Counted from the first letter of the stretch, positions 6,821 to 48,748 are shown. The stretch: DNA of 64,000 bases from Acidobacteriota bacterium (GCA_041178345.1 JBEGVQ010000167.1:8986-72985); one strand, 5' to 3'. Notes: generated by a model from the letters alone, not told the origin. Program-made: numbers and translations.

Positions 6821-7645
6821 ATGGCCGTCCGCGCCACCGTAGAAGCCCTGCTCCGAGAGCGAAACCTCGACCGAACCCTCACCTCTGCCATTCCCGAACG
6901 CCTGGGGGAAGACGCGGTCTCGCCGCTGGACGTCGAGGCCCTTGATCGCGGACTCGCCGGTGGCTTGCCGCGCGGGCAGGTGTCTGAAGTGGTGGGACCG
7001 GCTTCGTCTGGTCGTACGGGACTGGTGTGGGCCGCGTTGGCGGCGGCGACCCGCCGTGGCGAAACCGTGGCCCTGATCGACACCTTCGATCGCTTCGACC
7101 CGCCGACGGCAGCGGCCTGCGGCCTCGTGCTGCCGCGCCTGCTGTGGGTGCGTGGCCAGGCGGTATCGAAAACCGCGGTGGCCATCGACCCGGCCTGGCT
7201 CCCGGGCGTGCGCGCGGTCAACGGCCCCGGCACGTTCGTCGAGCGGGTGATCGATCGCGCGATTAAGTCGCTGAATTTGGTCGTCCAGTCGGGCGTGTGC
7301 ACGCTGGTCGCGATCGACCTGATCGACGTGCCGGCGCAGGCGCTGCGCCGGTTGCCGGCCTCCACCTGGTTCCGCATCGAACGCGCCATTGAAGGCCGCG
7401 ACACGGCGGTCGTCATTCTCGCCGCTCAGCCGGTGGCTCGCAGTAGCGGCGGCCGATCGATCGCGATGGGAACCGACTCCCGTGTTTCGACTCCCGACTC
7501 CCGACTCCCGACTCCCGTCTGGAAAGGCGGCCACGATCGCACGCGCCGCCTGGGTGGTGTTCGCTCTGGCGCGGCCGTCTCGGCCGCCCGCTGGTTGCAC
7601 GCCCAGCCAGTCGCTGTTCACACCCGTTTCGTGCCCGCGGTGTAA
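6821..7645 (+). CDS. imuA: ImuA (RecA/SulA-like subunit of the mutagenesis cassette)
   Basis: 274 aa. LDRGLAGGLPRGQVSEVVGPASSGRTGL is the ImuA P-loop-like motif. The gene sits directly upstream of imuB and dnaE2. Confidence 0.75.
   Translation: MAVRATVEALLRERNLDRTLTSAIPERLGEDAVSPLDVEALDRGLAGGLPRGQVSEVVGPASSGRTGLVWAALAAATRRGETVALIDTFDRFDPPTAAACGLVLPRLLWVRGQAVSKTAVAIDPAWLPGVRAVNGPGTFVERVIDRAIKSLNLVVQSGVCTLVAIDLIDVPAQALRRLPASTWFRIERAIEGRDTAVVILAAQPVARSSGGRSIAMGTDSRVSTPDSRLPTPVWKGGHDRTRRLGGVRSGAAVSAARWLHAQPVAVHTRFVPAV
7474..7522. repeat. CGACTCC heptamer tandem tract inside imuA (family F1, minus orientation)
   Basis: cgactcc cgtgttt then 4 perfect cgactcc units (7488-7515) then cgtctgg. Encodes ...DSRVSTPDSRLPTPV. 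Confidence 0.9.
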
Positions 7646-8978: not shown

Positions 8979-9087
8979 GCCACAGAGGCCACAGAGGACA
9001 CCGAGGAATATTTTCGAACTGTCACCTTATTCGGAAGTGTCGCTGCGCCTTTTTATAGAAATTGGTTGTCTCTGTGTCCTCTGTGGC
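8979..9087. repeat. 9-mer tandem (GCCACAGAG) and matching inverted copy flanking the imuB-dnaE2 spacer (family F5)
   Basis: gccacagag gccacagag gacaccgag at 8979-9005. Reverse complement ctctgtgtcctctgtggc at 9070-9087 matches 17 of 18 nt and overlaps the first dnaE2 codons. Confidence 0.9.
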
Positions 9088-12000
9088 TTACATCGAACTG
9101 CATACGTCCTCTGCTTTTAGTTTTCTGCGTGCGGCCTCCACACCGGAAACCCTGATCGAGCGCGCCGCCACGTTGGGTTATCCGGCAGTGGCGCTGCTCG
9201 ATCGCGACGGCGTCTCGGGAGCCCCGCGCTTCCATAAGGCCGCCCTCGCCGCCGGCCTGCGACCGCTGATTGGCGCCGAACTCACCCTCACGGGGAAGTC
9301 AGAAGGGAGAAGTCAGAAGTTAGAAGGGAAGAGGTCTTCTGCTCACTTCTCCCCTCTCACTTCTCACTTTCATCTTCCTGTCCTGGTGGCGTCGCAGGAA
9401 GGGTGGAGAAACCTCTGCCGGCTGCTGTCGCGCATGAAGCTGCGGGCGCCGAAAGGGGAGGGGGCGCTGGCCCTCGATGAACTCGACGGTGTTACGACCG
9501 GGCTCATCGCCATGCCGGGCCGCGCCTTGCTGCGGGCCGAGCGGTACGGGGTCGGCGGCCTGCTGGATCGCATTGTCGGCACGTTTGGCCGCGCCAACAC
9601 GTACGTCGAGTTACAGCGGCACTTGCACCGCGATCAAGAAGACGACAACGACGCGCTGGTGTGCCTGGCCGAGGCGTTTCGCGTGCCGCTCGTGGCCACC
9701 GGCGGCGTGGGCTTTGCCACGCCCGAGGAGCGGCCGTTGCTCGACGTGCTGACGTCGATTCGCGAGCACGTGCCGCTGCACCGGGCCGGCCGCCGCCTGG
9801 CGGCGAATGCCGAGCGCTACTTGAAACCGCCGGCGCAAATGGCGCGGCTGTTCGCGGATCGGCCCGGCGCCATCCACGCGACCCGCGACCTCGCCGATCG
9901 CCTGCAGTTCACGATGACCGATCTGGGCTATCGCTTTCCCCGGTACCCGGTGCCGGACGGCGAGACCGAGATCTCGTTTCTCCGCAAGATCGCCGAAGTG
10001 GGTGCGCGCGATCGCTACCGGCCGTATTACGACCAGGCCCGCGCGCAAGTGGCGCGCGAACTGGACCTGATCGAGAAGCTGCAACTGGCCGGCTACTTCC
10101 TGATCGTGTGGGACATCGTGAACTTCTGCCGCCAGCAGGACATCCTGGTGCAGGGCCGCGGCTCGGCCGCCAACAGCGCCGTCTGCTACAGCCTCGGCAT
10201 CACCGCCGTGGATCCGGTGGCGATGGAGTTGCTGTTCGAGCGCTTCCTGTCGGAGGAGCGCGGCGAGTGGCCCGACATCGATCTCGACCTGCCAAGCGGC
10301 GATCGGCGCGAGCGGGTGATTCAGCACGTCTACCAGAAGTACGGGCAACACGGCGCCGCCATGACCGCCAACGTCATCACCTATCGCGGCAAGAGCGCGG
10401 CACGGGAAGTGGGAAAGGCGCTCGACCTGGACGAGGGGCAGATCGATCGCCTGGCCAAGGTGATGCACCAGTTCGAGTTCATCGATCCCGCCGACACCTT
10501 GTCGAAGAAGCTCGCCGAGGTCGGCATGGCCGGCGACGAGCCGCGCGTGCGCCACTTTGCCGAGCTGTGGCGGCAAATGCAGGACCTGCCGCGTCACCTC
10601 GGCCAGCATTCCGGCGGCATGGTGGTGTGCCAGGGCGACCTGTCGTCGGTGGTGCCGCTCGAGAACGCCAGCATGCCCGGCCGCGTGGTGGTGCAGTGGG
10701 ACAAGGAAGACTGCGCCGACATGGGCATCATCAAGGTGGACTTGTTGGGACTCGGGATGATGGCCGTGCTGCAAGACACCATCCACCTGATTAACAGCCG
10801 GGAGCCGGGAGTCGGGAGTCGGGAGTCGGGTCGGGAGTCGGAGATGAGCCTGGCCACCATTCCCGCGGACGATCCCGAGGTCTACCAGATGCTGTGCGCG
10901 GCCGACACGATTGGCGTGTTCCAGGTCGAGTCGCGGGCGCAGATGGCAACGCTGCCGCGGCTCAAGCCCGAGAAGTTCTACGACCTGGTCGTCGAGGTCG
11001 CGATCATTCGCCCCGGCCCGATCGTCGGGCAGATGGTGCATCCGTACCTGAATCGCCGCGCGGGACGCGAAGCGGTGACGTACGACCATCCGCTGCTCGA
11101 GCCCATCCTCAAGCGCACGCTGGGCGTGCCGTTGTTCCAGGAGCAGTTACTGCGCATGGCCATGGTGGTGGCCAACTTCACCGGCGGGCAGGCCGAGGAC
11201 CTGCGGCGCGCCATGGGCTTCAAGCGCTCCGAGAAGCGCATGCGGCAGCTCGAGGGACTGTTGCGCGACGGCATGGCGAAGAACGGCATCACCGGCGAGG
11301 CCGCCGATCGCATCGTGCTGGCGATCACGTCGTTTGCCTTGTACGGCTTTCCCGAATCGCACGCCGCCAGCTTCGCGCTGCTGGCGTATGCGAGTGCGTA
11401 CTTCAAGCGGCACTACCCGGCGGCGTTCTACGCGGCGCTGCTCAACAACCAGCCGATGGGGTTCTATCATCCCGCCACCCTGGTGAAGGACGCGCAGCGG
11501 CGCGGTGTGCGCTTCAATCCCATCGACGTGCAGGTGTCGGATTGGGACTGCACGGTGGCAACAGATGGCTCGATCCGGCTCGGCCTGCGCTACGTGCGCG
11601 GGTTGCGGGCCGAGGCGGGGCAGGCGATCGCGAGCGTAAAGTCGGAAGTGAAAAGTGAAAAGCCAGAAGGGTGGAGCGAGCGTTGTCCGAAGTGCGGCTG
11701 CGACGATCCGACCATGTTGGAAACCACGCCGCAGGCGTCGCGGTTCTGCAACGTGTGTTCGCACGAGTGGACGGTCGCGCCGCCGCACACGGTCCGCTTC
11801 CGCAGCGTCGATGACCTGGTGCGCCGCGCGGGGCTCCGCCGCGACGAGATGGTGGCCCTGGCCGAGATCGGCGCGCTCAACTCGCTCGGCCATGACCGCC
11901 GCTCGGCCCTGTGGCAGGTCGAACGAGCGGTCCGTCCCGCCGGCAAGCTATTCGAAGAGGGCGGGACGGAGGGCCTCGGTACGGAGGGCCGGGACTTTAG

Positions 12001-12457
12001 TCCCGGCCATACAGTCGATAGTCCGCTGCCCGACATGAACGTCTCCGAACGCCTCATTGCCGACTACTCCGGTACCGGCCTCACTGTCGGCCCGCATCCG
12101 CTGACCTTCCGCCGCCACGAGCTGTCGATGCGCGGCGTGCTGCCGGCCATCGAGTTGCCGAAGGCGCGGGCGGGCCGCCGCGTGCGCACGGCCGGCATGG
12201 TGATCACGCGCCAGCGGCCAGGCACCGCCAAGGGCTTCGTCTTTCTCACCCTCGAAGACGAAACCGGCATCGCCAACATCATCGTCCGGCCCGATCTCTA
12301 CGCTACCGATCGCCTGACTATCATCGAGGCGTCGTTTCTCATGGTCGAGGGCGTGCTGCAGAACCAGGACGGCGTCACCTCGATCAAGGCCGAGCGGGTG
12401 TCGCGGCTGGCCGGCCTGCCCGACAGCGCAGCGATCGATTCGCACGATTTCCACTGA
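9062..12457 (+). CDS. dnaE2: error-prone DNA polymerase DnaE2 (ImuC)
   Basis: 1131 aa. PHP N-terminus YIELHTSSAFSFLRAAS, catalytic core ...ADTIGVFQVESRAQMATLPRLKP...AIIRPGPIVGQMVHPYLNRR, and a C-terminal OB region. The start is ambiguous (TTG 9062, GTG 9074 or GTG 9083). Confidence 0.95.
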   Translation: MVVSVSSVAYIELHTSSAFSFLRAASTPETLIERAATLGYPAVALLDRDGVSGAPRFHKAALAAGLRPLIGAELTLTGKSEGRSQKLEGKRSSAHFSPLTSHFHLPVLVASQEGWRNLCRLLSRMKLRAPKGEGALALDELDGVTTGLIAMPGRALLRAERYGVGGLLDRIVGTFGRANTYVELQRHLHRDQEDDNDALVCLAEAFRVPLVATGGVGFATPEERPLLDVLTSIREHVPLHRAGRRLAANAERYLKPPAQMARLFADRPGAIHATRDLADRLQFTMTDLGYRFPRYPVPDGETEISFLRKIAEVGARDRYRPYYDQARAQVARELDLIEKLQLAGYFLIVWDIVNFCRQQDILVQGRGSAANSAVCYSLGITAVDPVAMELLFERFLSEERGEWPDIDLDLPSGDRRERVIQHVYQKYGQHGAAMTANVITYRGKSAAREVGKALDLDEGQIDRLAKVMHQFEFIDPADTLSKKLAEVGMAGDEPRVRHFAELWRQMQDLPRHLGQHSGGMVVCQGDLSSVVPLENASMPGRVVVQWDKEDCADMGIIKVDLLGLGMMAVLQDTIHLINSREPGVGSRESGRESEMSLATIPADDPEVYQMLCAADTIGVFQVESRAQMATLPRLKPEKFYDLVVEVAIIRPGPIVGQMVHPYLNRRAGREAVTYDHPLLEPILKRTLGVPLFQEQLLRMAMVVANFTGGQAEDLRRAMGFKRSEKRMRQLEGLLRDGMAKNGITGEAADRIVLAITSFALYGFPESHAASFALLAYASAYFKRHYPAAFYAALLNNQPMGFYHPATLVKDAQRRGVRFNPIDVQVSDWDCTVATDGSIRLGLRYVRGLRAEAGQAIASVKSEVKSEKPEGWSERCPKCGCDDPTMLETTPQASRFCNVCSHEWTVAPPHTVRFRSVDDLVRRAGLRRDEMVALAEIGALNSLGHDRRSALWQVERAVRPAGKLFEEGGTEGLGTEGRDFSPGHTVDSPLPDMNVSERLIADYSGTGLTVGPHPLTFRRHELSMRGVLPAIELPKARAGRRVRTAGMVITRQRPGTAKGFVFLTLEDETGIANIIVRPDLYATDRLTIIEASFLMVEGVLQNQDGVTSIKAERVSRLAGLPDSAAIDSHDFH
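9295..9378. repeat. imperfect ~84-bp palindrome of GAAGTNAGAAG units in-frame in dnaE2 (family F3)
   Basis: Left arm gaagtcagaagggagaagtcagaagttagaaggg. Right arm ctcacttctcccctctcacttctcacttt is its approximate reverse complement. Encodes GKSEGRSQKLEGKRSSAHFSPLTSHFH. Confidence 0.9.
10800..10846. repeat. GGGAGTC heptamer tandem tract inside dnaE2 (family F1, plus orientation)
   Basis: gggagcc gggagtc x3 gggtc gggagtc ggagatg. Encodes EPGVGSRESGRESEM. Confidence 0.9.
11636..11671. repeat. GAAGTGAAAAG-type repeat inside dnaE2 (family F3)
   Basis: gtaaagtcggaagtgaaaagtgaaaagccagaaggg. Encodes VKSEVKSEKPEG, immediately 5' of the zinc-ribbon insert. Confidence 0.85.
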
Positions 12458-17384: not shown

Positions 17385-17807
17385 ATGCCCAAAGCGCCGA
17401 CCCTTCCGAAAGTCCGCCGAAAACGTTCCCAACTCCACGGCTTCGGCGTGTTCGCCCTGGAGCCCATCAATAAGAACAAGCGCATCATCGACTACGCCGG
17501 TGAGTTGATCACCAACAAGCAGAGCGAGAGCCGCGAAGATCGCTACCTGAAGAAGGGTTGCATCTGGGTGTTCCGCGTCAACCGCAACTGGAGCCGCGAC
17601 GCGCACGTCGGCGGCAACGACGCGCGCTTCATCAACCATTCCTGCAAGGGCAATTGCTGGATTGACGTGGACGCCGTGACCAAGACCATCTGGATTCGCG
17701 CCTCGAAGGCCATCGCCAAGGGCGAAGAGCTGACCTACGACTACAATACCGAGGGCGACAAGATCATCCCGTGCCTGTGCCGGCCGGGCTGCAAGACCAA
17801 GCTATGA
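17385..17807 (+). CDS. SET-domain protein lysine methyltransferase with post-SET Cys cluster
   Basis: 140 aa with HGFGVFA, RFINHSCKGNC, ELTYDY and PCLCRPGC motifs. Confidence 0.9.
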   Translation: MPKAPTLPKVRRKRSQLHGFGVFALEPINKNKRIIDYAGELITNKQSESREDRYLKKGCIWVFRVNRNWSRDAHVGGNDARFINHSCKGNCWIDVDAVTKTIWIRASKAIAKGEELTYDYNTEGDKIIPCLCRPGCKTKL

Positions 17808-20053
17808 GGTGGTGGCAGGGTGCGATCGCGCTGGCGATAATGGCCGCCGTGGCCGGCACGCACGCGCAGGCCGGCCCTGCCTTCTTCGTTCGCAACCTCG
17901 ACAACCCGCGCGAGCGGCGCGAGGCCCGCGCCGACATTCTCGACACCCCCGTCCTTCCCGGCTCCATCGTCAAGGCCGTGGCGCTGGTCGCCGCGCTCGA
18001 AGCAGGCGTGATCCGCGCCGATTCCAATCACATGTGCCGGCGCACGGTCACGGTTGATGGCCAGAGGTATGTGTGCGCGCATCCCGACCTCAAACGCGCG
18101 CTGTCGCCGGATGAAGCGCTCGCTTATTCCTGCAACGACTTCTTCGTGTCGCTGGCGCCGCGCCTGTCGCGCGACCGATTGAACCGCACGCGGCTTGCCG
18201 CCGGCCTGCCGCCGCTCGCCGCCGGCACGGCGCTGGCGTCCGCCCTGGTCGGACTCGCGGGCCCACGCACCAGCCCCCGCGCGATGATCGAGGTGTTGGC
18301 GCGACTGGCGGGTGCCAGCAAGGACACGCCCGTGCCCATGAGCCCCGCCACCAGGGCCGTGTTACTCGACGGTCTGCGCGGCGCAGCCGACTACGGCACG
18401 GCCGCGGCGCTGAAGGGTGCCGGTGTGCCGGCACTCGCCAAGACCGGCTCGATCCTGATGCCCAGCGGCGTCGTGCTCGGCCTGGTGGTCGCGCTCACAC
18501 CCGCCGACCGCCCGACTCACGGCGTCGTCGTCGCCGCGCCGGGCGGCGCCGGCGTGGACGCCGCGGCGATCGCCGCCGACGTTCTCCTGGAACGCACTTC
18601 AGCACCTCAGCACCCCAGCACCCCAGCACCTCTTCAGCCGATCAGGCTTGGGCGAACCCAGCCGAACGGCGCTACGCGAGTTGAAACGATCCCCGTCGAT
18701 AGCTACATTGCGCAGGTCTTGGCCGGCGAAGGGCAGCCGCGGGCGGGCGATGCGGCGCAGCAGGCGCTCGCCATCACCGCCCGAACCTTCGCCATCGCCA
18801 ATCGCAACCGCCATCGTCGCGAGGGGTTCGACTTGTGCGACACCACGCACTGCCAGGTGGTTCGCGCGGCAACGCCAACGACGACCCGTGCGGCGCAGGC
18901 GACCAGCGGGCGCTTGCTGCTCAGCAGGGGACAACCGGCGTTCGTGTTCTATTCCGCCTCGTGCGGCGGCCGCACCGAACTGGCCTCGGAAGTCTGGCCG
19001 GGGGCCATTGACTATGCCGGCGCGGCGTCGGTGCACGACGATGCGGACGCCGGCGAGCCGGCGTGGGAGAGTGAGGTGCGCGTGCGCGATGTCGAACGGG
19101 CACTGCGAAGCGCCGGCCTGCGCGGCGATCGCCTGCGCGACGTCCGCGTGCTGGCCCGCAACCAGTCGGGCCGCGTCTCGCGGGTGCGGGTCGATGGCCT
19201 TACGCCGTCAGAGATAAGCGGCCACGAGTTCCGGACGGCCGTCGGCCGCGTCGCCGGGTTCGCCGCCATCAAGAGCACGGCGTTCGACGTCACGCGGACC
19301 AGCAGTGGGTATCACTTCCGCGGACGCGGCTTTGGTCACGGCGTTGGCCTGTGCGTGATCGGCGCCGGCCTGCGCGCCGCACGCGGCTCGACCGCCGACG
19401 AGATCCTGAAGTTCTACTATCCAGGCCTGACGATTGGTTCGGGAGCACCAAACGTCCTGACAACAGTCGCACCGGTCACCGCCGTACCACCCGTGGCGCC
19501 TGTGGCACCCCTGGCACCCTTGGCACCGTCCTCCTCCGACATCGCCTTGGCCCTGCCCGGCAATGAAGAAGGCGAACGGGCCAGCCTGCTGAGTCTGATC
19601 CGCCGCAGCCGCGATGAGATCCTGAAGGCCACCGGCGCCAGGGCGCCCGCGCGCCTGCGTGTCACCGTCCATCCTTCAGTGGATAGCTTCGGCCGCGCCA
19701 CCGGCCAGCCGTGGTGGGTGTCGGGTGCGACCGAGGGCGCGGCTATCGAGCTGTTGCCGCTGACCACGCTCAAGCAGCGGGGACAGCTCGAGCGAACCCT
19801 CCGCCACGAAATGGCGCATGCGCTGCTGGACGAGGTGTTGTCGAAGCGACCGATGTGGGTGAGGGAAGGGGCCGCCGCGTACTTCGCCACCCCGCCGGCC
19901 TTGCGCACGGCCGCGTCGAGGGTCACCTGTCCAAAGGACGCAGAGTTGTTGCGCCCGATCTCCGCCGGCGCGCAGCGCGAAGCGTACGCCAGGGCCGAGG
20001 CGTGCTTTGCCAAGGGCATTGCCGACGGCAAGCGATGGGACCAGATTCGGTAG
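17804..20053 (+). CDS. secreted tri-domain protein: PBP/beta-lactamase-like transpeptidase fold, SpoIID/LytB domain and MA-type metallopeptidase-like tail
   Basis: The ATG at 17804 overlaps the SET stop (ATGA). Signal peptide MRWWQGAIALAIMAAVAGTHAQA. SxxK (GSIVKA), SxN (YSCND), KTG (AKTGS). SpoIID motifs ARTFAIANR, CDTTHCQV, YSASCGGRTE, GFGHGVGLCVIGA. HEMAH followed by REGAAAYF. Confidence 0.85.
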   Translation: MRWWQGAIALAIMAAVAGTHAQAGPAFFVRNLDNPRERREARADILDTPVLPGSIVKAVALVAALEAGVIRADSNHMCRRTVTVDGQRYVCAHPDLKRALSPDEALAYSCNDFFVSLAPRLSRDRLNRTRLAAGLPPLAAGTALASALVGLAGPRTSPRAMIEVLARLAGASKDTPVPMSPATRAVLLDGLRGAADYGTAAALKGAGVPALAKTGSILMPSGVVLGLVVALTPADRPTHGVVVAAPGGAGVDAAAIAADVLLERTSAPQHPSTPAPLQPIRLGRTQPNGATRVETIPVDSYIAQVLAGEGQPRAGDAAQQALAITARTFAIANRNRHRREGFDLCDTTHCQVVRAATPTTTRAAQATSGRLLLSRGQPAFVFYSASCGGRTELASEVWPGAIDYAGAASVHDDADAGEPAWESEVRVRDVERALRSAGLRGDRLRDVRVLARNQSGRVSRVRVDGLTPSEISGHEFRTAVGRVAGFAAIKSTAFDVTRTSSGYHFRGRGFGHGVGLCVIGAGLRAARGSTADEILKFYYPGLTIGSGAPNVLTTVAPVTAVPPVAPVAPLAPLAPSSSDIALALPGNEEGERASLLSLIRRSRDEILKATGARAPARLRVTVHPSVDSFGRATGQPWWVSGATEGAAIELLPLTTLKQRGQLERTLRHEMAHALLDEVLSKRPMWVREGAAAYFATPPALRTAASRVTCPKDAELLRPISAGAQREAYARAEACFAKGIADGKRWDQIR
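18599..18639. repeat. YCAGCACC octamer tandem tract in the inter-domain linker (family F2, opposite orientation)
   Basis: tcagcacc tcagcacc ccagcacc ccagcacc tcttcagcc. Encodes TSAPQHPSTPAPLQP. Confidence 0.9.
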
Positions 20054-20182
20054 GTGCTGGGGTGCTGAAGTGCTTGGCTGCTTGGGGGCTGAGGTGCCGG
20101 CCCGGCATTCCGATTCTCCCATCCCGTGGCTAGCGCTTGATCACCCGAGCACCCGAGCACCTCAGCACTTCAGCACCGTGAG
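20053..20182. repeat. inverted pair of F2 octamer tracts between convergent genes (likely bidirectional terminator)
   Basis: ggtgctgg ggtgctga agtgcttg gctgcttg ggggctga ggtgccgg at 20053-20100. cacccgag cacccgag cacctcag cacttcag caccgtga at 20142-20182. The right arm encodes the last residues (TVLKC*) of the 20162 gene. Confidence 0.85.
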
Positions 20183-20878
20183 AGTGGCCTGACGGATGAT
20201 AAGCGCGACGCCGGTCGCCATCAACAGCGCCGTCACGGCCAGCTTGCCGATCACGAACGCGAGTTCGACCGAGGTCGCGGGCAGGCCGCCGGGCCGCCAC
20301 GGCGCCAGGTAGATCCAGGGCGCGGCGACCAGGGCCGCGAACAGCAGCGTCGCCGTCGCGAGCGGCACCGGGGCGATGGCGCGCGTGATCCAGGCTGTGC
20401 GAGCGATCTCGCGCCAGCCGCCGTACAGGATGGCCGCCATCAGCGCCAGCGCCAACATCGGCGCGACCACCCCCTTCAGCCACACCGCCAGCCAACTGAT
20501 CCCCGTAAACAACCACGACACATCGTCCCAACCGACGGCGGTGATGAGCCACGCGTTGATCGGTCCGCTGTAGATGGTGACGCGGCCGGTGGCGGCGCCG
20601 ACGGCCCACCAGATCAGGCCCGCGATGATCGCGGCGGGGATGCTGGCCGGGACCCCCGCGGCCGCGGCACGAAAGAGGCTGGGCGACACGCCGCGTTGCC
20701 ACCCGAGCAGGGCGCCGCTCGCGGTCAAGGCCAGCAGGAAGCCCGCCGCGAGTAACAACAGCGCCGAAGCGGCCAGGCTCCAGATGGTGGATTCGGGCGT
20801 GATCAGAAACGACCAGTAGACGCCGCCGGTCAAGGCCGCGCCCACCAGAATCCACAAGGTGATCGTCACGAGCCTCAT
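20162..20878 (-). CDS. polytopic (~6 TM) membrane protein, unknown family, coupled to A2M
   Basis: The ATG at 20878 (MRLVTITLWILVGAAL...) overlaps the A2M stop (ATGA). The product is 238 aa and very hydrophobic. The ORF-track extension to 21100 is rejected. Confidence 0.7.
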   Translation of the reverse strand: MRLVTITLWILVGAALTGGVYWSFLITPESTIWSLAASALLLLAAGFLLALTASGALLGWQRGVSPSLFRAAAAGVPASIPAAIIAGLIWWAVGAATGRVTIYSGPINAWLITAVGWDDVSWLFTGISWLAVWLKGVVAPMLALALMAAILYGGWREIARTAWITRAIAPVPLATATLLFAALVAAPWIYLAPWRPGGLPATSVELAFVIGKLAVTALLMATGVALIIRQATLTVLKC

Positions 20879-23800
20879 CGCCTGCCCCCTTCCGGAGCCG
20901 TCACGATAAAGGCCTGGGGCTCGCTCGAGGCATGCACGCCGGGCACATACATGGGCGACACCTGCGCCGGAATCGCGCGGAACTGGCCCGGTGCGATCAC
21001 CTTCACGAGGTAGCGGTACTCGTAGCGGCCGCGGTCGAAGGACTCCTGGAAGAACACCGTGCGCGAGTCGCGGTACTCCACACGCGACCCGTACCACCAC
21101 TGCTCGGGCGCCTCACGTTCGAGAGGGTAGGCGGTCGTGTCCTGAATCGCTTCCACGCCGGCCGGCAGCGGGTCCTCGATGGCGAGGTATCGCCACTCGG
21201 GCGATCCGGCAACGGTGAGCCGGACGGTCAGTACGTCGCCCGGCTTCGCCGTGCCGGTGAACGGCTGCTCGCGATAGACGATGCGGCCCTTCACGGTGAC
21301 GGGTGTGAGCTGCGCGTACGTCCGCGTGAGGGCAAGTTGGCGGCTGCCGGCGGCGGCGCCGGCACCGGTCGTGTCGTAGTAGTTGGCCGCGGCCGACCAG
21401 TAAACGGTGCCACCATCCTCTTTGACCAGTCGCACCTGGTTGGCGCCGGCATTGGCCGGCACGGTGATCACCTGGGGATCCGGCGCCGTCATGGCCGCGG
21501 CCGAGAACGTGCGCCGGCCGGCATTGGCGCCGTTGACGAACACGTCCACCGAGAACGGTTGCGCCGACTCGCCACGGGCCTGCATGAACGACAGCAGGCC
21601 GTAGATCGCCATCGCGGTCTGCTTCGTGCTCGACCAGTAGCCGGCCGTCCGGTTCAACATCATCCAGCGCACGGCGCGTTCAACCAGCGGGCTCTTGGGA
21701 TCGCGGCGGGCGAGCGCCTGCACGGCGAACGCGGTCGCTTCGATGCTGGTCTCGGCCGCGTCGAGGAGCAGCGGGTCGTTGGCCACCGCCCACCACGACA
21801 CGTCGCCGCGCGTCTGCGCCTCGCCGGCCAGGGCCTGCGCCAGCTCGTGGCCGCGCGGGTCCTTGATCTCGTCGAGCAGCAGCAACAGCAGGGCGCGGCC
21901 GTAGGCGCTCATGCGGCTGCGTGCCTCCCACAACTCGTCGCGGGCTGCCACGTGGGTGTACTGGTGCTCGGTGCCGTCGGCGTACCAGGAGAGCTCGGTC
22001 TCGCCGCCGGCCGCCCGCTGCAGCACGTAGGCCTCGTACACCTTCAGGTCAGGCGCGACGCGCGGGTAATCTGCATACAGCCGCGCCAGGGCGCGGGCGC
22101 CGTTGTTGATGCGGTACTCCTGCACCTTCACGCCGGCGCGGCGCGCCTCGTCCATCGCCCACAGCGCGTACGCGGTCATGAACGGGTGATTGCCATCCGA
22201 CTTCCACCATCCCCACCCGCCATCGTCATGCTGGTAGTCGCCCAGGCGCAGAAGGCCGGCGGAGACCTGGCGATCGAGCGCCGACAGCCGCTCGGTCGGC
22301 GCCAGTTTCAACTCGGTGAGCGCCTTCGTCACCAGCAGGTTGGGCAGGAAGCTCGAGACCGTCTGCTCGGTGCAGCCGTAGGGATAGCCCGTCAGGAAGT
22401 CCAGCGCGCCCAGCATTGATCCCGCCAGCGACGGCGCCAGGGCAATCGAGACGGTGCGCGAGACCGGATTGGCGCCCTCGGGCACGGTGACGACCGTAGT
22501 CGCTTCACCGGCGCCAACAATCGAGCCGGCCGTGCCGGCTTCGCGGTGGATGCCGAATGGCAGCACGGGCAAGGGCAACTCCACCGCGTCGGTATCAACC
22601 GCGGTTCTCGCGGTCGCGGTGATGGTGGCCGTCCCGACGGTGCGGGCGGTGAAGCGCCAATCGTCGCGACGTTCGGCGCCGCTCGCGAGTGGGGACGACG
22701 GTGGGGCAGCGGCGGTCGTCGATGCGAGGCCGGTGGTCTGCACCGAGATGCTGGCCGTCTGCGTGTCGGGCCGATAGTTATGCACCATCGTCGGAATGAC
22801 CACCTCATCGCCCTCGGTGAGGAAGCGCGGCGTGATCACGCGGACGATCAGGTCCTTGGTCGTGGTGGTGCGCGCGACGGCGACGCCGGCTTTCGTGTCG
22901 TCGGTAATGGCGCGGGCGGTGAGCCGCCAGGTCGTCAGCGCATCCGGATAGTTCACCGCGATGCGGCCGCGCCCCTGCGCGTCGGTGACCAGGTCGCCGA
23001 CCCAGTAGATGGCGTCGGGAAAGTCCTTGCGCACCTCGGGTTGCACTTCCTTGTCGCCCTTGAAGTCGGCCAGCGTGAACGGACGCCGTCCGCGGCGGGC
23101 CAGTTGCAGGCGATCACGGCCTGAATAGCCCGTGAAGTAGTACTCGCGGGAGAACATGGTGTTCACGCGCGAGTACTCGCGACGGTAGAAGTGACGAATG
23201 GGATCGGGCGTGTCGTCGGCCTTCACGCCGTACACCGCTTCGTCGATCACCGCGAGGCTCACCTGTGCCCGCACCGGCTGGCCGGCCTGGTCGGTGACCA
23301 GCACCGAGAAGGCGCCGGGCTCGCGCGGTTTCGACACGGCCTGGTCGGCGGTCAGCGACACGGTCAACGTCCGGGAGGTGGCCGGCACGCCGAGGCGGCG
23401 TTCGGCCCGGCTCAAGCGCCCGTCGCGCAAGAACGCAATGCTCACGAACACGTCGCCGACGTCGCCCTCGTCGATCGGCACTTCGATGGCTTCGGTCGCC
23501 GTCGGTCTCAGCAGCCGGAACCACGACACGTGCTGGCCCTCCTTGGTGACCAGCACCGGGCCAGTAATGGTCTCGCCCCGGACGATCAGGCGGGCCGACT
23601 CACCGGGTTGGTATGTCCGCCGATCCGCCAGCAGTTCCAGGTAGCGCTCGCCGCTGTCGGCGGTGGTGTCACTCGGCCCCGGCACCCACAGCCACACATC
23701 GTCTTGAACCGTGCGGTCGCCGCTTGGCGCGGTCACGCGGACGCGGAAACTGCCGGTCTGTTGCGGCAACGTGACGCGCCCGGTCGCCAGTCCGCTCGCG

Positions 23801-25572
23801 TCGGTCGTCACGCCGCTCTCGCTGATCTGGTTCACCTCGGGTTCGCGGTAGTAGCCGGCTCGATAGGTGAGCTGTTCGAGCACGACGCTGACCGGAATGT
23901 TGCCCTGCGCGGCGCCGGTGTAGTCAACCGCGCGAATGGCGATGTCCACCGTGTTGCCGGCGCGGAACACCGAGTTGGTGGTCTGCGCCGCAACCAGGAA
24001 CGAACCAAAGGTGGCGTGCACCACGGTGTTGCCCGACACCTCGCGGTTGGCGGCGTCGGTGACCTGGGCCTCGATGCGCGCGCTGAAGTCGCGGCCGTTC
24101 TCGTCCACGCCCAGAGGCACGCGCAGCTGCGCCTTGCCGCTGGCATCCAGCCGCACGGAGCCCTGCGCCGTCTGGTGGTCGCCGTACCAGTAACTGCTTT
24201 CGCCGCCCTCGAACCCATCGTCCCATCGCAATGGCGAGTAGTACGGCTGCTGGTTGAGGACCCACCGCAGTTGACCGTTGGCGACCGGCTGCCCGAAGTA
24301 GTACCGGGCTTGGATTGAGATCACCGCGACGTCGCCCTGGCGCACGAACCGGGCGGCCGGTGCCACGAGGACTTCGAACTCCGGCTTGCGGTACTCCTGC
24401 ACTTCGAAGCCGCTCGAAGTCTGGAAGTCACCGCTTTGCACGCGCAGTGCGTAACTGCCGAGCGCGGCAGTCGGCGGAACCGCAAAGCTTGCGAGGACGG
24501 CGCCAAACGCATCCACCTTTACCTGCTGGCGGAAGATCACCTTGTCGTTCGGATCCGAAGCCACCACTTCAACCTCGGCACGGTCGAACTTCGCCAGCGC
24601 GTCGTGATGCCGCCAGCGCAGGATGCCCTTGAGGTGAACGGTGTGGCCGGGACGATAGATGGGCTTGTCGGTGTAGAGGTAACCGGCCAGCTCGCGCGCC
24701 GGTTCCTGCAGCGACCACGAGCCCGGGTCGGTCGCCGCCACCTGGTCGCCGCACTGCGCGATGCCGACCACGTTGTCCATCGGCTGCTCGGGCAGGACGG
24801 CTTCGAACAGGCCATCGACCGAGGTGCGGCCTTCGGCGACGGTCTGCTGCGACACGAGCACGCGCACGGCGCACTCGGCGACCGGTTCGCCGGTGAAGCG
24901 ATCGGCGGCAAAGAACAGCATCTGGCCCGGCGAGGTCTTGGTGACCAGGCCGACGTCGGAGACGATCACGATCGTGTAGGCCCGCAGCAGGTCGTGGACG
25001 GCTTCGACGACGTAGATGCCGGGCCGGCGCAGATCAACGGGTACACGGCGAACCTCGGGGTCGCGGTGGTTCGGCAGCAACTCGCGCCACGTGGTGACGA
25101 CCTGGTCGGAGTTGAGCAGCGGCACCTGTGCAAACGTGTTGGCGTTCAAGACCACGCGCTGGGCGACCACCGCCTGGTCGGTGGCGGCCCGCCGCGCGGC
25201 TCGGTAGGGCTGGCTGACCTGGCCGCGCGCGAAGCGCTGCACTGACTGGCGCTGGCCGCGCTTCCAGTCGGCGAGCTGCTCGATCCACGTCCGTTCCTGT
25301 GGCACCTCGACATCACCGCTGCCGAACTGATGCGGGTCGCGAAGGCTGGCAAAGAACGCGAACGGATCGCGGACCTGGTAGACCCGGAAGTCGAGCTGCG
25401 GCACGCGACGAAACGTCAGGTAGAAGTTCGGCGCATCCTTGGTCGTGAAGACCTCGCTCGTCGAGAGCGAGAACGCCGGGCGCTCGTCGCTCTCGCCTTG
25501 CGCGCTTGCCTCGCGCGAAGTCAGAAGTGAGAAGAGCGAAGTGAGAAGGATTAGCGAGCGGGCCAGCTTCAT
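20875..25572 (-). CDS. bacterial alpha-2-macroglobulin with intact thioester
   Basis: 1565 aa with signal peptide MKLARSLILLTSLFSLLTSREASA (no lipobox Cys) and thioester motif GYPYGCTEQTVSSF. Size and repeated beta-rich MG-like segments fit the family. Confidence 0.93.
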   Translation of the reverse strand: MKLARSLILLTSLFSLLTSREASAQGESDERPAFSLSTSEVFTTKDAPNFYLTFRRVPQLDFRVYQVRDPFAFFASLRDPHQFGSGDVEVPQERTWIEQLADWKRGQRQSVQRFARGQVSQPYRAARRAATDQAVVAQRVVLNANTFAQVPLLNSDQVVTTWRELLPNHRDPEVRRVPVDLRRPGIYVVEAVHDLLRAYTIVIVSDVGLVTKTSPGQMLFFAADRFTGEPVAECAVRVLVSQQTVAEGRTSVDGLFEAVLPEQPMDNVVGIAQCGDQVAATDPGSWSLQEPARELAGYLYTDKPIYRPGHTVHLKGILRWRHHDALAKFDRAEVEVVASDPNDKVIFRQQVKVDAFGAVLASFAVPPTAALGSYALRVQSGDFQTSSGFEVQEYRKPEFEVLVAPAARFVRQGDVAVISIQARYYFGQPVANGQLRWVLNQQPYYSPLRWDDGFEGGESSYWYGDHQTAQGSVRLDASGKAQLRVPLGVDENGRDFSARIEAQVTDAANREVSGNTVVHATFGSFLVAAQTTNSVFRAGNTVDIAIRAVDYTGAAQGNIPVSVVLEQLTYRAGYYREPEVNQISESGVTTDASGLATGRVTLPQQTGSFRVRVTAPSGDRTVQDDVWLWVPGPSDTTADSGERYLELLADRRTYQPGESARLIVRGETITGPVLVTKEGQHVSWFRLLRPTATEAIEVPIDEGDVGDVFVSIAFLRDGRLSRAERRLGVPATSRTLTVSLTADQAVSKPREPGAFSVLVTDQAGQPVRAQVSLAVIDEAVYGVKADDTPDPIRHFYRREYSRVNTMFSREYYFTGYSGRDRLQLARRGRRPFTLADFKGDKEVQPEVRKDFPDAIYWVGDLVTDAQGRGRIAVNYPDALTTWRLTARAITDDTKAGVAVARTTTTKDLIVRVITPRFLTEGDEVVIPTMVHNYRPDTQTASISVQTTGLASTTAAAPPSSPLASGAERRDDWRFTARTVGTATITATARTAVDTDAVELPLPVLPFGIHREAGTAGSIVGAGEATTVVTVPEGANPVSRTVSIALAPSLAGSMLGALDFLTGYPYGCTEQTVSSFLPNLLVTKALTELKLAPTERLSALDRQVSAGLLRLGDYQHDDGGWGWWKSDGNHPFMTAYALWAMDEARRAGVKVQEYRINNGARALARLYADYPRVAPDLKVYEAYVLQRAAGGETELSWYADGTEHQYTHVAARDELWEARSRMSAYGRALLLLLLDEIKDPRGHELAQALAGEAQTRGDVSWWAVANDPLLLDAAETSIEATAFAVQALARRDPKSPLVERAVRWMMLNRTAGYWSSTKQTAMAIYGLLSFMQARGESAQPFSVDVFVNGANAGRRTFSAAAMTAPDPQVITVPANAGANQVRLVKEDGGTVYWSAAANYYDTTGAGAAAGSRQLALTRTYAQLTPVTVKGRIVYREQPFTGTAKPGDVLTVRLTVAGSPEWRYLAIEDPLPAGVEAIQDTTAYPLEREAPEQWWYGSRVEYRDSRTVFFQESFDRGRYEYRYLVKVIAPGQFRAIPAQVSPMYVPGVHASSEPQAFIVTAPEGGRR
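25517..25554. repeat. F3 repeat (GAAGTGAGAAG units) encoding the A2M signal-peptide core
   Basis: gaagtcagaagtgagaagagcgaagtgagaaggattag. The reverse complement reads LILLTSLFSLLTS. Confidence 0.85.
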
Positions 25573-26246
25573 AGCACTGCCAGTCGATAGACGCCGATGA
25601 ACCGCGGGTTCGACGCGAGGGGCCGCCAGCGGGTGGCGGGGTGTTGTGCGAGCGTGCCGAGGCGGACCTTGCGCACCTCGCCGGGGCCGTCATCGGCCGG
25701 GCCGGTGTGATACACGACCCAGTCATCGCCTTCGGCTTCGAACGCAGAGCGGCCGACAAACACCATCAGGTGGTCGGGCACCTGTTGTGCCGGTTGGCGG
25801 AAGTAGAGCAAGTCGCCGGGGCGCAGGGCCCGGGTGTCGCGGCCGAGTGGCCGGGTATTCAGCGCGATCAACGTCTTCGCGTCGGCAAACTCGGCATACT
25901 GCGCGTCGGGGCCATCGGTGACCCGAAAGAGCGGCCACCCGTGGGCGCCCGGCTTCGGCGCCGATCGCACGTCGGCATATTGGGGCGCAAACGGGAGTGC
26001 CGCGCGGCGCACCCACTCGGGCGTGTGCGCCCGCATGGCTTCGCGATAGGCGTGGCGAATCAGCGCGGCACAGTCGGCGACGTCCGGTGTGGTGCGCTCG
26101 AACTGCGCGTCGGCCAGCAACACAAACCACGATCGGAACGCGGCGCGATCGGATTCATCGGCGAGCCGCGCTTGCGCTCCGGCTCGGGAACCGGCGACCG
26201 ACGCGAGCAGGACCGCGAGAACAACGATGGTTTTGGAAGCCGACAC
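25569..26246 (-). CDS. DUF1175/YfaT-like secreted protein with NlpC/P60-style Cys-His-His layout
   Basis: FRSWFVLLADAQF, DCAALIRHAYREA, PGDLLYF, DHLMVFVG, VVYHTG, NPRFIGVYRL. The stop overlaps the A2M ATG (ATGA). A GTG start at 26246 (VSASKTIVVLAVLLASVAG) is preferred, because the longer ORF would translate the heptamer repeat. Confidence 0.65.
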   Translation of the reverse strand: MSASKTIVVLAVLLASVAGSRAGAQARLADESDRAAFRSWFVLLADAQFERTTPDVADCAALIRHAYREAMRAHTPEWVRRAALPFAPQYADVRSAPKPGAHGWPLFRVTDGPDAQYAEFADAKTLIALNTRPLGRDTRALRPGDLLYFRQPAQQVPDHLMVFVGRSAFEAEGDDWVVYHTGPADDGPGEVRKVRLGTLAQHPATRWRPLASNPRFIGVYRLAVL

Positions 26247-26280
26247 GGTGGTTCTCTGGGTAGAGTGGACCAGTATATTC

Positions 26281-26329
26281 CGACTCCTGACTCCTGACTC
26301 CTGACTCCCGACTCCTGACTCCCGACTCC
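26281..26329. repeat. seven tandem GACTCC[CT] heptamers (family F1) in the spacer upstream of the DUF1175 gene
   Basis: cgactcc tgactcc tgactcc tgactcc cgactcc tgactcc cgactcc. On the minus-strand mRNA this is seven GGAGTC[AG] units. Confidence 0.95.
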
Positions 26330-26340
26330 CGGCAGTGTCC

Positions 26341-26844
26341 TTACAGCTCGACGACAAAGCCGGCGAACTTGCCCGCCAGCCAGCGCTCGTGCAGGCGGCC
26401 GCCGTGGGCCTGGACGACGGCGATGGCGATCGGGAGCTGCCGGCCGGTGCCGCCGCGGCTGATGTCGACCGGGCGTTCTTCGAGGGTGCCGCGGCCGAGC
26501 GTCCGCGGCTGCACCACGACCTGCGCGGTGGTTCGCCCCTTGACCAGGCGCAGGTCGAAGCCCGCCGCGCCCGATTGCACCCGCGCGAGGGTCGCGATCA
26601 GGGTGCAGAACACTACGCGCATGCGGGCCTCGTCCAGTCGCAGGCGGACGTCGGTGGGGGCCACCACGTCGAGGTCGGTTGCAAAGTGGCCGGGCAATTC
26701 CACGGCCTGCACCGCCTGGTTCAGCACCGAGCGCAGGGACGTGCGCTTCAGCGCCACCTTGATGCGGCCACCCGTGAGGAGGGCCGGCCCGCGAAGCTCG
26801 TGGGAGGCCAGCAACAACAAGGCGGGCAAGGCAGATTCGGCCAT
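26341..26844 (-). CDS. stand-alone degenerate histidine-kinase-like protein (HisKA H-box retained, ATP-lid motifs lost)
   Basis: MAESALPALLLLASHELRGP is an H-box. The C-terminal part resembles HATPase_c (GGTGRQLPIAIAVVQAHGGRL) but has no N-box Asn and no DxGxG. No sensor or TM region. The start may be 26844 or 26859. Confidence 0.5.
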   Translation of the reverse strand: MAESALPALLLLASHELRGPALLTGGRIKVALKRTSLRSVLNQAVQAVELPGHFATDLDVVAPTDVRLRLDEARMRVVFCTLIATLARVQSGAAGFDLRLVKGRTTAQVVVQPRTLGRGTLEERPVDISRGGTGRQLPIAIAVVQAHGGRLHERWLAGKFAGFVVEL

Positions 26845-26930: not shown

Positions 26931-27908
26931 TTGGCGATGTTGATTAAAAAGGCTGCAGACCTGCGCGAATCCGACGTGACCCCAAAGGAAACCTTCCTGC
27001 GGCGCCGCGAATTTCTCGCCGTGGCCGGCAGCACGGCCGTGGCCGTGGCCACCAACGGCCTGGGCCCGGTGTTCACGGGGACGGCCACCGCGCTGGCGCA
27101 GAACCCGTCGGCGCAGAAGCTGGCCAACCTCAAGAAGAGCCCGTTCAGCACCGACGAGAAGCTCAACTCGTACAAGGACGTCACGACCTACAACAACTTC
27201 TACGAGTTCGGCCTCGACAAGGCCGACCCGTCGAAGTACGCGCACACGCTCAAGCCCAGGCCGTGGAGCGTGGTGGTGGAAGGGCAGTGCGCCAAGCCCG
27301 GCACGTACAATATCGAAGACATCCTGAAGTACGCGCCGCTCGAAGAGCGTATCTACCGCCTCCGCTGCGTCGAGGCGTGGTCGATGGTGGTGCCCTGGGT
27401 CGGCTATCCGCTGAGCGAGTTCCTCAAGCGCTTTGAGCCGACGTCGAAGGCGAAGTACGTCGAGTTCCGGACGCTGGTCGACACGCGACAGATGCCGGGC
27501 CAGACCGAGCCGGCGCTCAACTGGCCCTACGTCGAGGGCCTGCGCATGGACGAGGCGATGCACCCGCTCACGCTGCTCGGCCTTGGACTGTACGGCGAAG
27601 TGTTGCCCAACCAGAATGGCGCGCCGATTCGGCTGGTGGTGCCGTGGAAGTACGGCTTCAAGAGCATCAAGTCGATTGTCCGCGTGCGCTTCGTCGAGAA
27701 CGAACCGATCAACACGTGGAAGCAGCAGCAGTCGTCGGAGTACGGCTTCTACGCCAACGTCAACCCGCAGGTCGATCACCCGCGCTGGACGCAGGGCAGC
27801 GAGCGGCGGCTCGGCGAATTCTTTCGCCGCAAGACGCTGATGTTCAACGGCTACGGCGACCAGGTCGCATCCCTCTACGCCGGGATGGATCTGCGCAAGA
27901 ACTATTAG
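26931..27908 (+). CDS. msrP: protein-methionine-sulfoxide reductase catalytic subunit MsrP (YedY)
   Basis: 325 aa. [17 protein letters not shown] is a Tat leader. NNFYEFG and [17 protein letters not shown] are typical MsrP blocks. Confidence 0.9.
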
Positions 27909-28516
27909 TGACGCAAACGCAATGGCGGCGACGGGTGTTCAAGCCCGCCGCCTGGCTCGCCTGCCTGGCGCCTGCCGCGCTGTTGGTCTACCACGGCTTC
28001 CAGAGTGAGCTCGGCGCCAATCCGGTCGAAACCATCACCAACAGCACCGGCATCTGGACGCTGCGGCTGATCGTGATCGGCCTGGCGATCACGCCGCTGC
28101 GGTGGGCGAGCGGGCTCAATCAACTGATCAACTACCGGCGCCTGATCGGCCTGTTTGCGTTCTTCTACGGCACGCTGCACTTCCTGACTTACTTCATCCT
28201 CGACCACCAGCTGCAGTTCACCGGGCTGTGGGACGATGTCGTCAAGCGGCCGTACATCACTGCGGGGTTCACCGCGTTCGTGTTGATGATTCCTCTGGCG
28301 ATCACCTCGACCGGCGGCTGGATTCGCCGCATGGGCGGCCGGCAGTGGAACCGGCTGCACCGGCTGATCTACATCACGGCACTGGCTGCGGTGCTGCATT
28401 ACTTCTGGAAGGTAAAGCTGGATGCCACGTATCCGGTCTACTACGGCATCGGTGTGGCGGTCCTGCTTGGCATCCGCCTATGGCTTCAGTACCACCGCAA
28501 GCCGGCGTCACAATAG
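27908..28516 (+). CDS. msrQ: MsrQ (YedZ) heme-binding membrane subunit
   Basis: The GTG start overlaps the msrP TAG by 1 nt. KPAAWLACLAPAALLVY...RRLIGLFAFFYGTLHFLTY, with about 6 TM segments. Confidence 0.85.
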   Translation: MTQTQWRRRVFKPAAWLACLAPAALLVYHGFQSELGANPVETITNSTGIWTLRLIVIGLAITPLRWASGLNQLINYRRLIGLFAFFYGTLHFLTYFILDHQLQFTGLWDDVVKRPYITAGFTAFVLMIPLAITSTGGWIRRMGGRQWNRLHRLIYITALAAVLHYFWKVKLDATYPVYYGIGVAVLLGIRLWLQYHRKPASQ

Positions 28517-48720: not shown

Positions 48721-48748
48721 GGGAGTCGGGAGCCGGGAACCGGGAGTC
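48721..48748. repeat. GGGAGYC heptamers (family F1) next to a TCGACTAGTCGA palindrome
   Basis: gggagtc gggagcc gggaacc gggagtc, then the perfect 12-bp palindrome at 48747-48758 that contains the ATPase stop codon. Confidence 0.85.

Follow-up and report, generated by a model that had tools for sequence, protein, structure and literature searches.

A thioester-retaining, MagC-linked alpha-2-macroglobulin module of Acidobacteriota that looks like a third bacterial A2M system

A 64-kb stretch of DNA from an Acidobacteriota bacterium (GCA_041178345.1), hereafter the window, was found to contain an alpha-2-macroglobulin (A2M) gene between a magC-like gene of the DUF1175/YfaT family and a gene for a membrane protein with six transmembrane helices (6-TM protein). 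The G+C content was 66-70% and the organism was of a soil/freshwater type. The module appears to form a third kind of A2M system, one that retains the thioester, is linked to MagC, and includes two partner families without annotation. The genes on the minus strand were, from 5' to 3', a histidine kinase (HK)-like open reading frame (ORF) (26341..26844), magC (25569..26246), the A2M gene (20875..25572), and the 6-TM gene (20162..20878). An earlier sequence-only reading of the window had described four minus-strand ORFs joined by ATGA overlaps or a repeat-filled spacer, and all of them were found at these coordinates. The junctions were read directly. The stop codon of magC and the start codon of the A2M gene overlapped in the ATGA at 25569-25572 (context ...gtgctATGAagctg...), and the stop codon of the A2M gene and the start codon of the 6-TM gene overlapped in the ATGA at 20875-20878 (context ...ggcgATGAggctc...). 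The magC, A2M, and 6-TM genes are translationally coupled.

The A2M contained 1565 amino acids, with the Pfam domains MG2, bMG5, A2M_BRD, A2M, TED, and bMG10. Motif mapping placed the thioester motif GCTEQ at residues 1066-1070 (22363-22377, minus strand). The TED matched TED_complement with an E value of 8.6e-16, and the protein matched the YfhM/SaA2M structures of the PDB with an E value of 1e-29. At the places where ECAM carries the lock motifs RDDR and EXMY (PMC4498604), the window A2M contained RDSR and SPMY. The bait-equivalent segment, located by alignment to SaA2M, was Arg/Lys-rich and covered residues ~815-850. The N-terminus, MKLARSLILLTSLFSLLTSREASA/QG, was a type-I (Sec) signal peptide without Cys. 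This signal peptide, MKLARSLILLTSLFSLLTSREASAQG, was Cys-free and the first Cys of the protein was residue 234; the lipobox Cys is missing, and the A2M is therefore not a lipoprotein. The length, the GCTEQ motif, the type-I signal peptide, and the missing lipobox Cys had all been given in the sequence-only reading and were confirmed.

The magC-like gene (25569..26246, minus strand) encodes an NlpC/P60-like protein of 225 amino acids with a Sec signal peptide. The same reading had assigned this ORF to the DUF1175/YfaT proteins with a Cys-His-His layout, and the profile search gave a strong match to the Pfam family DUF1175/MagC (PF06672; E 7.6e-55, 186.3 bits, cut-off 27), followed by a weak match to Pfam NlpC/P60. 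The solved structure of the P. aeruginosa MagC (7bk8) was matched with an E value of 5.5e-26. The motifs DCAALIRHAY, DHLMVFVG, and VYHTG were present, with Cys59 at 26061-26075, His159 at 25761-25775, and His180 at 25701-25712 (minus strand). These three residues were invariant in an alignment that included E. coli YfaT and P. aeruginosa MagC. The P. aeruginosa MagC has been reported to bind peptidoglycan without detectable hydrolysis (Zouhir 2021, as cited in PMC10318531). A DUF1175 gene without an A2M gene was observed on plasmid p_2 of Deinococcus sp. D7000 (locus L087, 11848-12594), beside the peptidoglycan recycling genes anmK and murQ and a beta-lactamase-family gene; MagC-like proteins can thus also stand in cell-wall contexts that have no A2M.

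The 6-TM gene (20162..20878, minus strand) encodes an inner-membrane protein of 238 amino acids. It had 119 close homologs of equal length, and a profile search found 232 representatives among 1.84e9 proteins. No family match was found in Pfam, NCBIfam, or PADLOC. The 6-TM protein is the product of a real, conserved gene and belongs to a new, unannotated family. A partner with about six transmembrane helices had been proposed from the sequence, and AlphaFold2 with the family alignment predicted six helices with confidence (predicted local distance difference test, pLDDT, 91; predicted template modelling score, pTM, 0.83). A fold search of this model against the PDB gave no significant match (best E 0.38, TM ≤0.25). 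The topology was predicted from Lys/Arg counts, by which both termini, together with loops 2 and 4, are cytoplasmic. The three loops predicted on the periplasmic face contained the conserved motifs TPEST (20786-20800), SGPINAW..GWDDVSW (20513-20569), and PWRPxxLP (20279-20305), respectively (minus strand). Conservation was much higher in these loops than anywhere else in the protein, as expected for a membrane anchor or receptor of a periplasmic partner.

The module converges on a plus-strand gene that most likely starts at the ATG at 17804 and ends at 20053. Its product was found to contain a penicillin-binding protein (PBP)-type transpeptidase domain, a SpoIID/LytB lytic-transglycosylase-like domain, and a C-terminal HExxH domain. 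The transpeptidase domain matched PF00905 with 42.3 bits (cut-off 22.1) and contained the SxxK, SxN, and KTG motifs as SIVK (17963-17974), SCN (18128-18136), and KTG (18440-18448). The SpoIID/LytB domain matched TIGR02669 with 151.7 bits (cut-off 83.3) and the SpoIID structure 4rwr with an E value of 3e-14. The HExxH domain of ~170 residues contained RHEMAH...WVREGAA (HEMAH at 19805-19819, WVREGAA at 19856-19876, plus strand). The pattern RHExxH...WxxEGxA was conserved in ~60 proteins of two phyla and was present in all classes of Acidobacteriota. Only sub-threshold Pfam matches (SprT-like, DUF1570, Peptidase_MA_2) were found for this domain, no match to the HExxH protein was found in NCBIfam, and AlphaFold, run on the single sequence of the domain, gave no usable model (pLDDT 46). 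The sequence-only reading had described convergence on a PBP-transpeptidase/SpoIID gene; this linkage is conserved, and operonic in Blastocatellia, but the third domain with its HExxH motif had been missed. Two interdomain linkers of the protein were encoded by short tandem DNA repeats at 18594-18632 and 19488-19527 (GCACCTCA x 4.9; CACCCGTGG x 4.4). They were Pro/Ala/Val-rich and may vary in length.

The conservation of the module was studied by a scan with the MagC alignment over one genome per GTDB species, from which the best 80 of at least 562 MagC loci were taken; together with three contigs, 83 loci were compared. All 80 scan loci were on Acidobacteriota-type contigs, of Vicinamibacteria, Terriglobia, Blastocatellia/Pyrinomonadaceae, Chloracidobacterium, and Solibacteraceae. 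The gene set is thus conserved outside this genome, being present in every sampled Acidobacteriota class and, in a reduced form, in Deinococcota. MagC was followed by A2M in 80 of the 83 loci. The thioester motif, as YPYGC[TV]EQT, was kept in every A2M with a readable TED (71/71), and the 6-TM gene was found directly after the A2M gene in every locus with enough downstream sequence (64/64). Three contigs encoding divergent 6-TM members all contained MagC, A2M, and 6-TM in that order. The 6-TM proteins of Vicinamibacteria and those of the other classes were not related detectably by BLAST; they are homologous all the same, being aligned by hhalign with a probability of 98.5% (E 3.7e-15) and with TPES in register.

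The SpoIID/HExxH gene was found within 5 kb of the module in at least 47 of 51 loci. It was convergent in 40 loci; this was the arrangement in Vicinamibacteria. In Terriglobia the convergent partner was divided between two genes, one for the transpeptidase and one for SpoIID/HExxH, and in Blastocatellia the partner was co-directional and overlapped the 6-TM gene by 4 bp, which makes a four-gene operon (locus L069). The adjacency of the partner is kept through inversion and gene fission, which argues for functional coupling and not inherited synteny. A CarboxypepD_reg/outer-membrane-protein beta-barrel gene, sometimes together with a T2SSE ATPase gene, was present between the 6-TM and SpoIID genes in some Vicinamibacteria (loci L001, L002, and L003); this insertion was not present in the window. 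Four loci labelled as Acidimicrobiia/Bifidobacteriaceae (L014, L018, L026, and L039) contained the module at 57-75% MagC identity with Vicinamibacteria-type synteny, and are probably mis-binned or mislabelled contigs of metagenome-assembled genomes.

The Deinococcota records were found by a tblastn search with MagC against plasmids. Five loci contained a DUF1175 gene, followed by a thioester A2M gene and a gene for a secreted HExxH protein. The carriers were Meiothermus taiwanensis, Deinococcus sp. KNUC1210, D. psychrotolerans, a Trueperaceae chromosome, and a further 4.5-Mb contig. The A2Ms ranged from 1467 to 1491 amino acids, with a single Cys, the motif GYPYGC[ST]EQT, and no lipobox, and the A2M hidden Markov model (HMM) of Acidobacteriota gave ~1000-1050 bits on them. 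The third gene encodes an unannotated, secreted protein of ~200 amino acids with the motif RHExFH...W(L/K)AEG. It overlapped the A2M gene by 4-14 bp in L088, L089, and L091, and was separated from it by 7-9 bp in L086 and L092. When this protein was compared with the C-terminal domain of the Acidobacteriota protein, hhalign gave a probability of 99.7% (E 1e-26) over 172 columns. The cassette was often plasmid-borne and its flanking genes differed in every locus; from these unrelated flanks it follows that the three genes travel as a cassette. Neither the Deinococcota loci nor the type II locus of Citrobacter was matched by the 6-TM HMMs.

Two types of bacterial A2M have been described. The type I A2M contains the thioester, is a lipoprotein, and is encoded beside pbpC, whereas the type II A2M contains neither the thioester nor Cys and belongs to the six-gene mag/yfa operon (PMC5764988, PMC3735191). 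The features that define both types were searched for, and the module fitted neither. It had the thioester of type I, without the lipobox Cys and without an adjacent pbpC; it had MagC directly upstream of the A2M as in type II, in the order seen in E. coli and Citrobacter, without a thioester-less A2M and without the DUF2138 and DUF2135 partners. This is in line with the sequence-only reading, which had called the combination of a thioester A2M with a YfaT-like gene a hybrid. The Acidobacteriota A2M HMM gave ~350 bits on the type II proteins (E. coli YfaS 352, Citrobacter) as against 273 bits on YfhM, and by this profile score the window A2M lies nearer to YfaS of type II than to YfhM of type I. 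E. coli PbpC, YfaA, YfaP, and YfaQ gave no BLAST match in the 64-kb window, and no matches to pbpC, DUF2138, or DUF2135 were found in the 83 related loci. Two 'YfaP' BLAST matches, in L018 and L019, were CarboxypepD_reg domains and were rejected. No cluster of this type was found to be catalogued in the searchable literature, Pfam, NCBIfam, or PADLOC, as the earlier description of an uncatalogued arrangement had implied.

The absence of yfaQ, which had been claimed along with that of pbpC, yfaA, and yfaP, holds for BLAST searches of the window, but a probable distant counterpart of YfaQ was found. DUF2300 (YfaQ/MagE) gave no BLAST or Pfam match for the window module. E. coli YfaQ scored 27 bits with Pfam SpoIID (cut-off 23), and the SpoIID+HExxH HMM of the module gave 27-31 bits on YfaQ-family proteins as against at most 4.2 bits for 2000 shuffles. 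The HExxH tail was aligned by hhalign to YfaQ (THEYLH...EG; two-sequence profile) with an E value of 1.2e-6 and a probability of 90.8%. E. coli yfaQ (L004:3149-4798) and the Citrobacter DUF2300 gene (L090:14133-15779) were observed to score above the SpoIID cut-off and to end in HEYLH...(I)EG(L)A. These matches suggest that the YfaQ/MagE-family proteins are SpoIID-like proteins with an HExxH tail, and the convergent gene, in its SpoIID+HExxH part, probably corresponds distantly to YfaQ/MagE. With this probable counterpart, the module would have three components in common with the Mag operon.

It is very improbable, in our view, that the region is no functional unit at all, the A2M being an ordinary one of type I or type II and its neighbours being kept only by shared ancestry in one order. 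The wider synteny (msrP, RidA, SET) is also conserved within Vicinamibacteria, which speaks for that explanation. Against it, the trio is still found in other classes, at MagC identities as low as 42% and with different flanks, the partner stays adjacent after inversion and fission, the cassette recurs in another phylum with unrelated flanks, the genes are linked by stop/start overlaps, and the A2M lacks the full set of features of either type.

The other features of the locus were the following. The HK-like ORF (26341..26844, minus strand; 167 amino acids) contained the H-box SHELRGP at 26785-26805. Relative to its orthologs, it had an in-frame loss of ~45 HisKA residues directly after the H-box. 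The orthologs were soluble proteins of ~215 amino acids with a HisKA match of 33.8 bits and a weak HATPase_c match, whereas the ORF of the window gave no Pfam match and its HisKA domain was not intact. The gene was present upstream of magC in only some Vicinamibacteria and absent in the closest relatives (L003, L006, L008, and L051), which makes it a variable, here degenerate, neighbour; the pseudo-kinase was therefore rejected as a core member. The sequence-only reading was right that the HisKA-like protein is degenerate but not that it is a partner in the operon.

The 94-bp spacer between the HK-like ORF and magC contained a heptamer array, in which GGAGTCR was repeated 6.9 times (26281-26329; 36-83 bp upstream of the magC start). 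The array was lineage-specific. It was rejected as a conserved regulatory feature: it was not found upstream of magC in the relatives, and is therefore not part of the module, and it was present at other sites of the window. GGAGTCR arrays were also found at 7488-7515 and 10808-10828, and weakly at 48722-48734 (13 two-unit matches as against 0.1 expected), and one of the arrays was inside a dnaE-like ORF (9062..12457). The gap of 108 bp between the convergent genes (20054-20161) contained an intergenic inverted octamer array (GGTGCTGR) that forms a long hairpin (minimum free energy -70.6 kcal/mol, z -5.67). This hairpin is a probable bidirectional terminator that closes both convergent units.

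The msrP and msrQ genes run divergently upstream of the module (26931-28516, plus strand). They encode a periplasmic methionine-sulfoxide repair system, and MsrP was found beside magC in 36 related loci, so that two envelope-protection units stand side by side in Vicinamibacteria. A SET-domain gene (17385-17807, plus strand) encodes a lysine methyltransferase-like protein of 140 amino acids (Pfam E 1.6e-22). It overlapped the start of the transpeptidase/SpoIID/HExxH gene by an ATGA, and the same pairing was found in L002 and L003.

The sequence of the window was matched only in metagenomes and metatranscriptomes. Eight riverine metatranscriptomes contained contigs with at least 99% identity on all three core genes. 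The MagC/A2M junction was spanned by the RNA contigs 25428-25695, 25301-25578, and 25445-25619, and the A2M/6-TM junction by the RNA contig 20806-20956. The magC, A2M, and 6-TM genes are expressed, and the contigs are consistent with co-transcription. One RNA contig (26541-26779) was found for the HK-like ORF. Short RNA contigs covering just the hairpin at 20054-20161 recurred in five metatranscriptomes, as expected for a stable structure at the 3' end.

Taken together, we consider it probable that the region represents a third A2M architecture, vertically conserved in Acidobacteriota, related to the three-gene cassette of Deinococcota, and working by a periplasmic trap mechanism. The module may function as a membrane-anchored periplasmic protease trap that is coupled to peptidoglycan binding or remodelling. 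In the proposed mechanism, the Sec system would export the A2M as a soluble periplasmic protein, and the 6-TM protein would hold it at the inner membrane, taking the place of the lipid anchor that YfhM has, or of MagB, a single-pass protein. MagC would tether or target the complex to peptidoglycan. A protease entering the periplasm would cut the Arg/Lys-rich bait segment and expose the Cys1067-Gln1070 thioester, by which the protease would be captured covalently, and the neighbouring transpeptidase/SpoIID/HExxH protein might remodel or repair the wall at the same place. MagB is known to anchor and stabilise MagD (PMC5764988), the mag operon protects against type VI secretion system (T6SS) effectors that target peptidoglycan (PMC12663445), and an A2M-PBP1c defence/repair idea was put forward for the PBP1c found beside type I A2Ms (PMC4498604). 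We infer that the module is related to the type II (Mag/Yfa) operon but has retained the thioester and is without MagA/B/F. In evolutionary terms, an old MagC/A2M/(SpoIID-)HExxH cassette may have kept the thioester in Acidobacteriota and Deinococcota, with the loss of the thioester and the gain of MagA/B/F in the proteobacterial type II line.

Several observations weigh against the trap reading or limit it. The genome scan covered the best 80 of the MagC loci found, and the distribution described here is that of two phyla. The RNA evidence consisted of contigs only, was sparse and of low depth, and may include DNA carry-over. The link to YfaQ consisted of the 27-31-bit SpoIID match and one hhalign match to a two-sequence profile. 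The 6-TM protein was absent from Deinococcota and is thus not universally required. The module was found in a stable, core-like chromosomal context beside msrPQ and not in a defence island, and a PADLOC search of five proteins gave no match. These last two points would suit a housekeeping role, in which the A2M restrains or scaffolds the peptidoglycan enzymes of the cell itself (MagC, SpoIID, transpeptidase, zincin) during growth or division or under envelope stress. All of the conserved partners either bind peptidoglycan or are enzymes related to it, and the context beside the envelope-repair genes msrPQ is vertically inherited. We regard such a role as rather unlikely. The strictly conserved thioester and lock motifs point to covalent protease capture, which is, to our knowledge, the only known use of thioester chemistry in A2Ms. 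In addition, the Deinococcota cassette is found on plasmids and in varied contexts, without SpoIID or transpeptidase, and the related mag operon is demonstrably protective against foreign effectors (PMC12663445).

The bait-equivalent segment was conserved across classes and not hypervariable; it was among the better conserved parts of the A2M, which fits a broad-spectrum trap in an arms race less well. This conservation, together with an HExxH partner found in both phyla, keeps alive a reading in which the HExxH zincin is a dedicated, convertase-like protease that cuts the bait of its own A2M, after which the thioester attaches the A2M covalently to peptidoglycan amines or to an invader; in this reading the A2M would not lie in wait for foreign proteases. 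Apart from MagC and the A2M, both phyla have just one partner in common, the HExxH domain, and an overlap of its gene with that of the A2M was seen in three of the five Deinococcota loci. HEYLH...EG is found in the tail of YfaQ/MagE, and MagD needs its operon partners for correct processing to the 100-kDa form (PMC3735191). However, the zincin assignment consists of the motif and sub-threshold Pfam matches, the single-sequence structure model was of low confidence, protease activity is known for no member, and MagE formed no stable complex with MagD in vitro (PMC5764988). A dedicated protease of this kind is, in our judgement, unlikely. A wider form of the idea, that the thioester A2M and the HExxH protein make a complement-like pair whose site is set by MagC (and by the 6-TM protein in Acidobacteriota), with the type II Mag systems as thioester-less descendants, we find quite unlikely. 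The periplasmic trap is the reading that we prefer.

The two-type scheme joins chemistry and partners, as thioester with PbpC and no thioester with Mag, and the module separates these features. In the whole of a very abundant soil phylum, and also in Deinococcota, MagC goes together with an A2M of the thioester kind, and the module is a natural intermediate for asking what MagC and MagE/YfaQ do. Two unannotated partner families were defined, the six-helix membrane protein, which has no solved structural relative, and the HExxH domain. These questions are directly testable, since some carriers, among them Deinococcus and Meiothermus, can be cultured and manipulated genetically.

When compared with the type II systems (P. 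aeruginosa magABCDEF and E. coli yfaA-yfaT-yfaS-yfaQ-yfaP), the module was found to contain the DUF1175/MagC gene directly upstream of the A2M gene, overlapping or abutting it, and an A2M with a Sec signal peptide, without a lipobox, and with MG domains nearer to those of YfaS. Both have a membrane partner (MagB there, the 6-TM protein here), and they probably share a SpoIID-like/HExxH component (YfaQ/MagE there). However, the window A2M keeps the CXEQ motif, which is found neither in YfaS nor in the Citrobacter type II protein. The module is without DUF2138 (YfaA) and DUF2135 (YfaP; MagA/MagF), the membrane partner is an unrelated six-helix protein, and the SpoIID/HExxH component forms one protein with a PBP transpeptidase, encoded in most cases on the opposite strand.

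With the type I systems (E. coli YfhM/ECAM, Salmonella SaA2M + PbpC), the module shares the CXEQ motif in the TED, the lock-type motifs in the C-terminal MG domain, an alignment over ~1400 residues, and the pairing with a gene for a transpeptidase-bearing peptidoglycan enzyme. In contrast to type I, the window A2M has no lipobox Cys and is accompanied by MagC and the 6-TM protein. The N-terminal extension of YfhM is missing, the HMM alignment starting at YfhM residue 228, and the GT51 glycosyltransferase of PbpC/PBP1c is absent, the transpeptidase being fused here to SpoIID and HExxH.

The cassette on plasmid pMtWR-220 of Meiothermus taiwanensis (MTAI_RS14165-14175) carries no annotation beyond DUF1175, 'MG2 domain-containing protein', and 'hypothetical protein', respectively. 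Unlike the window module, the Deinococcota cassette is without the 6-TM protein, SpoIID, and the transpeptidase; its HExxH domain is a free secreted protein of ~200 amino acids, and its A2M is ~80 residues shorter at the N-terminus than that of the window. The two share MagC upstream of the A2M, the retained thioester, the absence of a lipobox, and a homologous HExxH domain, and their A2Ms belong to the same clade, with 31% identity over ~1400 amino acids.

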